From NCBI RefSeq assembly GCF_024298765.1, contig NZ_CP101210.1: a stretch of DNA of 64,000 nucleotides. One strand, given 5' to 3'. Below are positions 3,593-3,802 of the stretch, piece after piece (within the stretch, counting starts at the first letter, position 1; every line of letters starts with the position of its first letter). The position numbers were made by a program, and so were the translations under genes. The stretch is from Escherichia coli (GTDB lineage: Bacteria > Pseudomonadota > Gammaproteobacteria > Enterobacterales > Enterobacteriaceae). Under the pieces are notes generated by a model, which was not told the origin of the DNA, did no database searches, and was given only the letters and a program-made list of their open reading frames with translations.

Positions 3593-3802
3593 ATAAATCA
3601 CTCTCTTACTGTAGGGGTAAGAGGATTTTACTATTTTTCTCGCTGTAGGGGTACACGAGAACCACCGAGCCTGATGTGGTTAAAAGACAGGCATACTAAT
3701 AAACACTGCACTGTGTATTTATTCCAACGAGTGAATACACGGAGCAATGTCGCTCGTAACTAAACAGGAGCCGACTTGTTCTGATTATTGGAAATCTTCT
3801 TT

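Follow-up and report, generated by a model that had tools for sequence, protein, structure and literature searches.

A repeat pair upstream of a sieB-position gene in an Escherichia coli prophage: a probable PsieB/sas module with non-SieB cargo

Layout of the prophage locus

The window analysed here, a 64-kb stretch of Escherichia coli DNA (contig NZ_CP101210.1), carries a lambdoid prophage in the orientation opposite to the lambda map. In this prophage cro (301-501, minus strand) and cI (602-1315, plus strand) are followed by an ORF at the rex (rexAB) position downstream of cI (1443-2300, plus strand), a pL-like site near 2525-2553, N (2704-3105, plus strand) and, convergent with N, the gene at the sieB position, which we refer to as ORF164 (3098-3592, minus strand); ea10 (3849-4217, plus strand) lies beyond it. 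The ORF at the rex position codes for a 285 aa protein with an NYN domain (PF01936; phrog_5783) and weak PADLOC matches to HEC-09/NYN, and is likely a prophage-expressed nuclease or defence candidate. The 12-nt direct repeat AAACTCGAAAAA, whose copies lie 52 bp apart at 1725-1789 within this ORF, is at chance level. Dense short direct repeats are also present at 40109-40550, among them a 24-bp periodic stretch at 40502-40550, and probably belong to a repetitive coding region.

The 851 bp around the repeats that are the subject of this work showed 100% identity to Escherichia phage ev099 and about 99% identity to HK446. Homology to lambda starts only at about 3636, just ahead of the repeat copy that lies distal to ORF164. 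A stretch of lambda with orf28 and ral (about 340 bp; 1262-1600 of locus L001) is missing in the window at 3693-3700, and lambda homology restarts before a tL2-like terminator at 3801-3828; VT1-Sakai and HK446 are arranged likewise. On the plus strand, hairpins and this strong intrinsic terminator occupy 3700-3828, a position comparable to that of KilS in Rac, where (locus L124, 3406-3503) KilS is annotated as a small RNA about 100 nt past the repeats in the pL direction.

ORF164 codes for 164 aa, or 167 aa from GTG 3601, with a coiled-coil region and a C-terminal CxxC...CxxC motif. The protein matches phrog_1244, a family annotated as of unknown function, and gave no match in Pfam, PADLOC or NCBIfam. 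Its identification as SieB was considered and rejected based on the phrog_1244 match and on a BLAST cluster separate from SieB, a result that concerns the cargo and not the promoter. An internal in-frame ATG is found at codon 23 (3526-3524, minus strand), with a GGAGG Shine-Dalgarno sequence at 3538-3534; the corresponding Met is missing in the homologue at locus L121 and is not conserved in the family. In P22, the antisense RNA sas switches translation to an internal start in sieB/esc. The internal start of ORF164 recalls this arrangement and may be incidental.

The initial annotation had reported two 11-bp direct repeats upstream of this gene, and both are present as described. CTGTAGGGGTA occurs exactly on the plus strand at 3609-3619 (the gene-proximal copy) and at 3643-3653 (the distal copy), 34 bp from start to start and 17-61 bp upstream of the minus-strand ORF (start ATG 3592 or GTG 3601), and the similarity between the copies reaches 16 nt at 88% (TCTTACTGTAGGGGTA against TCTCGCTGTAGGGGTA). 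The initial annotation had also proposed a search for the motif in the full prophage. In the window these are the sole matches at up to one mismatch, and no enrichment was seen at up to two (19 matches against 32 expected). A repeat of this kind is by itself statistically unremarkable. In 200 first-order Markov simulations of the window, scored for an exact 11-mer repeated within 60 bp, the mean was 1.0 such repeats per window, with at least one in 52% of the simulations, so that about one is expected by chance in 64 kb. Among 100 shuffles, 6 produced two or more matches to the repeat motif. That the repeat is more than chance follows from its conservation across contexts, which is described below.

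Conservation of the decamer pair

The conserved part of each copy is a decamer, CTGTAGGGGT, located at 3609-3618 in the proximal and at 3643-3652 in the distal copy. The decamer pair at a spacing of 33-35 bp was found in at least 61 distinct sequence contexts and in more than 120 viral contigs; the scan of viral contigs for the pair gave at least 120 matches, and the 61 contexts were counted among the matches listed. The contexts comprise lambda, P22, VT1-Sakai, HK446 and Rac as well as genomes of Proteus, Moellerella, Yersinia, Serratia and Rosenbergiella. Across the 61 contexts the spacer and both flanks diverge, and the decamers are invariant.

In lambda, VT1-Sakai, HK446, P22 and K-12 Rac, two copies of CTGTAGGGGT stand 34-35 bp apart directly upstream of the sieB-position gene, the proximal copy of Rac reading CTGTAAGGGT. 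Nearly all loci in samples anchored on the gene, and not on the repeat, had both copies exact; the protein-anchored searches for distant relatives gave almost solely close relatives. One gene-anchored locus, L229, has one change in each copy (proximal variant CTATAGGGGT), and two other gene-anchored loci were rearranged. At two SieB loci on viral contigs a different sequence takes over upstream, from exactly the distal copy onwards in L202 and from within the proximal copy in L155, which suggests rearrangement breakpoints at the repeats.

Bacterial genomes were scanned, one genome per species, with a 16-mer anchored on the distal copy alone. Thirteen of the 120 matches listed were true sites, of enterobacterial type, the rest being mostly chance, and these belonged to Escherichia, Proteus, Moellerella, Yersinia, Serratia, Rosenbergiella and Arsenophonus. 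The proximal copy was present 33-36 bp away at all 13 true distal-copy sites. Departures from the decamer were a 1-bp insertion within the repeat site in Arsenophonus and the variant CTTTAGGGGT in Serratia, the latter at a locus that looks degenerate.

The genes downstream of the pair are of more than one kind. Among the 119 loci listed, 79 carried a member of the SieB family and 38 a member of the ORF164 family, and a third family, phrog_3983, was also represented. Within the species itself, 987 of 5426 complete E. coli genomes contained DNA matching the 106-bp stretch at 3595-3700; the 12 genome matches listed for it had no annotated feature beneath them.

The minus-strand promoter and the plus-strand RNA

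On the gene strand the elements follow a common order: ACCCCTACAG, 11-13 nt, the hexamer TAnnnT, 6 nt, and again ACCCCTACAG. In 60 of the 61 unique variants among the matches listed, exactly 6 nt separate TAnnnT from the proximal copy downstream of it; between the distal copy and the hexamer there are 11 to 13 nt, and the spacing from copy to copy is 33, 34 or 35 bp. Eight different -10 hexamers occur among the variants, and the weaker ones, TAGCAT, TACCAT and TAACAT, are preceded by TGn. The P22 record NC_002371 annotates the sieB promoter at 29690-29720, with the homologous -10 TAAACT inside it. Its 'sieB RNA start site', 29727, falls on the first A of the proximal ACCCCTACAG. The window contains the same arrangement, with a -10 at the fixed distance from ACCCCTACAG and another ACCCCTACAG near -34. 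The P22 start was reportedly mapped by RNase protection by Ranade and Poteete (J Bacteriol, 1993), who are also said to have inactivated the -10 and to have identified the lambda promoter by homology.

Based on the conserved geometry and on homology to P22, the predicted -10 hexamer in the window is TAAAAT at 3625-3630 (minus strand) and the predicted transcription start, homologous to P22 29727, lies at 3618 (minus strand). The predicted 5' UTR is 26 nt long and has an SD-like AAGAGAG 8 nt before ATG 3592. We propose that a sigma-70-type promoter with this -10 and a weak -35 would start transcription at 3618 on the minus strand. The proximal copy, which reads ACCCCTACAG on that strand, would occupy +1 to +10, so that the mRNA would begin with its ten bases (ACCCCUACAG). 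The distal copy would lie at -34 to -25, overlapping the -35 region. Such a promoter would drive whatever gene sits at the sieB position, here that for the phrog_1244 protein. Consensus promoter scans did not detect PsieB in the window, nor in P22, where it is mapped, and gave no sas promoter either, and they were accordingly given no weight; that the scan misses PsieB even in P22 fits a poor -35.

The likeness to the known promoters of P22 and lambda extends to position. Like PsieB in these phages, which lies between N/24 and ral/ea10 and is oriented against pL, the region in the window lies between N and ral/ea10 against pL, in a layout shared by lambda, Sakai, HK446 and P22. Its distal half is near-identical in sequence to theirs, TAnnnT stands 6 nt upstream of ACCCCTACAG, and the decamer is at -34 to -25. 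It differs from P22 PsieB in the inter-repeat spacer, in the 5' UTR and in the hexamer (TAAAAT against TAAACT), as well as in its cargo, which is a phrog_1244 protein and not SieB; the start in P22 was mapped, whereas that in the window is assigned from homology. The initial annotation had viewed the repeats as a repeated operator or promoter element, and the promoter half of this view stands, the pair lying in the control region with the distal copy over the -35 region. Its suggestion that the gene must be expressed in the repressed prophage also agrees with the comparison: the RNA start of the homologous P22 PsieB has been mapped and its gene is expressed in the prophage, and the same would by analogy apply to the promoter in the window.

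What the initial annotation overlooked is that, judged by the sequence, both copies would also lie inside the sas antisense RNA on the opposite strand. Transcription of the same DNA in the pL direction would yield an antisense RNA of the sas type. The sas RNA of P22 was reportedly described by Ranade and Poteete (Genes Dev, 1993). A 2026 survey of P22 infection lists P22A-sas as a small RNA of 127 nt and gives its sequence (Table 2, PMC13397905). We mapped this sequence to P22 29636-29762 (complement), on the pL-direction strand; it contains both decamers and has a 36-nt antisense overlap with the sieB mRNA that covers the 5' UTR and the AUG.

A local alignment of the window with P22A-sas spans 3581-3693 and includes the reverse complement of ATG 3590-3592. 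By this homology the sas-like RNA of the window would extend over approximately 3581-3709 (plus strand). As in P22, it would run on the pL-direction strand and cover the 5' UTR of the sieB-position gene together with its start codon, and the proximal copy would fall in the 5' part of the RNA. The two sequences have both decamers, a hairpin (H2) and a pseudoknot in common, and over 3637-3693, which holds H2 and the pseudoknot part, 56 of 57 positions are identical. In contrast, the 5' third, which is antisense to the gene leader, is unrelated to that of P22 sas because the cassette is a different one; the 5' part of the RNA has diverged together with the gene cassette. Both the start at 3618 and the antisense RNA are transferred to this prophage from P22 by analogy. 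The plus-strand RNA, putative here, could have its own promoter or arise by processing of pL transcripts; a consensus scan of the kind that misses the mapped P22 promoter showed no promoter-like site on the plus strand near 3500-3600. A full-text literature search on the sieB promoter or transcript gave nothing useful, and the literature on Pas sRNAs and KilS was set aside as concerning other loci.

In the minimum free energy fold (RNAfold) of the plus strand, H2 occupies 3637-3661 (TTCTCG-C-TGTA-GGGG-TACA-CGAGAA), the distal copy forming its 5' arm and GGGG loop. In a sas-type RNA the distal copy would therefore cap H2, and a conserved pseudoknot would come next. The latter, supported by covariation, is an H-type pseudoknot at 3660-3692 (plus strand), directly after the distal repeat and inside the P22 sas RNA. 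Its stem S1 pairs AACCAC (3660-3665) with GTGGTT (3676-3681), its stem S2 pairs GCCTG (3669-3673) with CAGGC (3688-3692), and its loop 3 is A-rich (AAAAGA).

Over 28 diverse sequences, 92.5% of the H2 cells were paired, with G-C, A-U and U-A all seen at one position; the 3' arm of H2 varies (UACA or UAUA), and the arm formed by the decamer is constant. For H2 and the pseudoknot overall, 89.7% of cells were paired in the same 28 sequences, against 26-38% with the partners slid. Changes on both sides occurred in eight pairs (five in S1, two in S2 and one in H2) and the observed covariation score was reached by none of 500 shuffles, on an alignment that was fitted by hand and N-padded and so favours the structure; it replaced a whole-region MAFFT alignment in which the 3' arm of the pseudoknot was misaligned. 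Wobble pairs separated the strands weakly, with 89.7% of cells paired on the plus and 87.7% on the minus strand, and since G.U pairs gave a 2-point difference only, the assignment to the plus strand rests on the P22 RNA data.

H2 and the pseudoknot as features of sas are a result of this analysis and not a published definition. Rfam gave no match in 3581-3709 at E values up to 10 and does not contain the pseudoknot; in 2300-4600 the sole real Rfam match was the lambda cIII thermoregulator (RF01804, 88.5 bits) at 4277-4335 on the plus strand, as expected for a lambda-like cIII leader. A 73-bp P22 stretch with the distal copy, H2 and the pseudoknot matched 119 phage records. No RNA was annotated under the match in the 60 records listed of these 119, in which the annotation was either nothing, a sieB or hypothetical CDS, or the P22 'promoter' feature.

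A further hairpin, H1 (3602-3624, plus strand), holds the proximal copy in its loop and is followed by ATTTTACTATTTTT, which makes it terminator-like. A terminator scan detected H1 with its T run in the window and not in lambda or P22, and the hairpin is particular to the variant in the window. H1 was rejected as a conserved covarying hairpin or terminator, with 4.28 pairs in cognate against 4.22 in non-cognate combinations and 2053 of 5000 permutations as high.

Overall, we consider it probable that the repeats make up the conserved core of the PsieB/sas module of lambdoid phages, a compact control region read on both strands between N and ea10/ral. By its sequence, the element in the window appears to be this known module with a non-SieB cargo.

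Two identical copies and their possible roles

Lambda oop/cII, P22 sar/ant and R1 CopA/CopT are cis-antisense pairs of lambdoid phages and plasmids in which a short structured antisense RNA covers the ribosome-binding region of its target, hairpin loops being the likely first contacts. PsieB/sas differs from oop, sar and CopA in that sas has a second target-complementary copy outside the overlap and a 3' pseudoknot. To our knowledge, neither a second complementary copy nor a 3' pseudoknot is known in oop/cII, sar/ant or CopA/CopT.

We tentatively suggest that the two copies are identical because sas would use the distal one as a further antisense site, acting in trans, against the unvarying 5' end of the mRNA, a reading that we consider possible and short of probable. 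The GGGG loop of H2 would serve as a toehold on the CCCC of the mRNA 5' end, and after this contact the mRNA would invade the short UGUA/UACA stem. The sas RNA of an incoming or induced lambdoid phage could in this way find a partner in the PsieB mRNA of every resident prophage, irrespective of the cargo, and such pairing in trans would lower or alter the translation of the resident mRNA. The decamer duplex has a predicted energy of -17.3 kcal/mol, and a co-fold of the mRNA 5' end from the window with the distal copy and its TTTCTCG flank reached -25.7 kcal/mol with H2 opened. The proximal variants of Rac (CTGTAAGGGT) and L229 (CTATAGGGGT) are G-to-A changes that keep the pairing to the distal copy as G.U; the CTTTAGGGGT variant at the degenerate-looking Serratia locus is not wobble-compatible with it. 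The presence of a proximal copy at all 13 true sites of the genome scan was also counted in favour of this pairing. We infer such seed-target pairing from this thermodynamic prediction and from three or four natural variants. Against a second site, full complementarity between sas and the mRNA is given by the proximal copy anyway in a phage with its own cassette, so that there is no obvious need for a second antisense site.

The identity of the copies might have other origins. A hairpin unit, TCTC-x-CTGTAGGGGT-x-GAGA, could have been duplicated in tandem long ago, leaving two copies that are conserved separately and without interaction, the distal one as the structural tip of the hairpin in sas and as DNA of the -35 region, the proximal one as start site and initial transcribed sequence. 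The pyrimidine-rich 5' and purine-rich 3' flanks of both copies and the extension of the repeat to 16 nt speak for such an origin, as do the conservation of H2 as a helix and the constant 6 nt to the -10, the latter of which ties the proximal copy to the start site. Separate constraints are, however, not expected to hold ten bases identical while every neighbouring position changed, and the 3' arm of H2 varies where the decamer arm does not, so that pairing alone does not explain the invariance. Taken together, we regard a duplication of this kind as a reasonable alternative, possible and short of probable. A coincidence without function, which the initial annotation had named as an outcome that would overturn its reading, can practically be dismissed: although the chance expectation given above allows for one such repeat in the window, both copies are exact in dozens of otherwise divergent contexts from several genera, and this conservation refutes it.

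It is unlikely, in our view, that the copies are a pair of operators to which one DNA-binding repressor or activator attaches, in the -35 region and over the start site, regulating the gene in the lysogen. Identical sites of 10-11 bp at -34 to -25 and +1 to +10 would be well placed to occlude RNA polymerase, and both are invariant across lineages. The operator half of the initial proposal nevertheless did not hold up, as the proximal copy would by homology be the first ten transcribed bases and the window offered no additional sites, matches at up to two mismatches being no more frequent than expected. The spacing of 33-35 bp (about 3.2 helical turns) varies, which means that the sites are not kept on one face, and the Arsenophonus variant has its 1-bp insertion inside a site. 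The module is also common to phages with different repressors (lambda, P22, the 21-like Sakai phage and HK446), so that a phage-encoded binder must be immunity-independent, and reasoning led us to no candidate binding protein common to phages of different immunity. As a lead only, TACCCCT in the repeat fits the NarL/NarP heptamer consensus, TACYYMT, which we counted in favour of operators; this heptamer leaves the invariant CTGT unexplained, and the proximal copies do not conserve its first T. Likenesses to the NarL heptamer, the DnaA box, boxA, and CsrA and LexA sites were all rejected, the matching bases not being the conserved ones or the partner half-sites being absent.

Returning to pairing in trans, a wider form of the proposal, which we would call speculative, is that the decamer acts as a family-wide address. 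Every PsieB mRNA, be its cargo SieB, phrog_1244, phrog_3983 or another, would start with ACCCCUACAG and every lambdoid sas would display the complement twice, one of the two on a toehold hairpin stabilised by the 3' pseudoknot, and an incoming or induced phage might then silence or re-programme the resident exclusion gene in trans, whichever cassette it belongs to.

The region from N to ral/ea10 is a hotspot of lysogen-expressed lambdoid genes, comprising superinfection exclusion genes and likely defence genes. It appears to be served by one promoter/antisense module with at least three unrelated cargo families, in which the mRNA leader has ten invariant bases and the antisense RNA a conserved pseudoknot, and the decamer pair offers a simple handle for finding the cargo genes downstream. 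Three aspects are worth following: the conserved pseudoknot, the unvarying leader of the mRNA and the independence of the module from its cargo. If pairing in trans is false, the finding amounts to the correct identification of a known promoter; if it is true, it would account for the escape of related phages from one another's exclusion genes. Should the reading of the decamer as an address also be true, lambdoid phages would possess a shared expression-and-countermeasure system for superinfection-exclusion cargo, and roughly a fifth of complete E. coli genomes would contain members of an unannotated RNA family.
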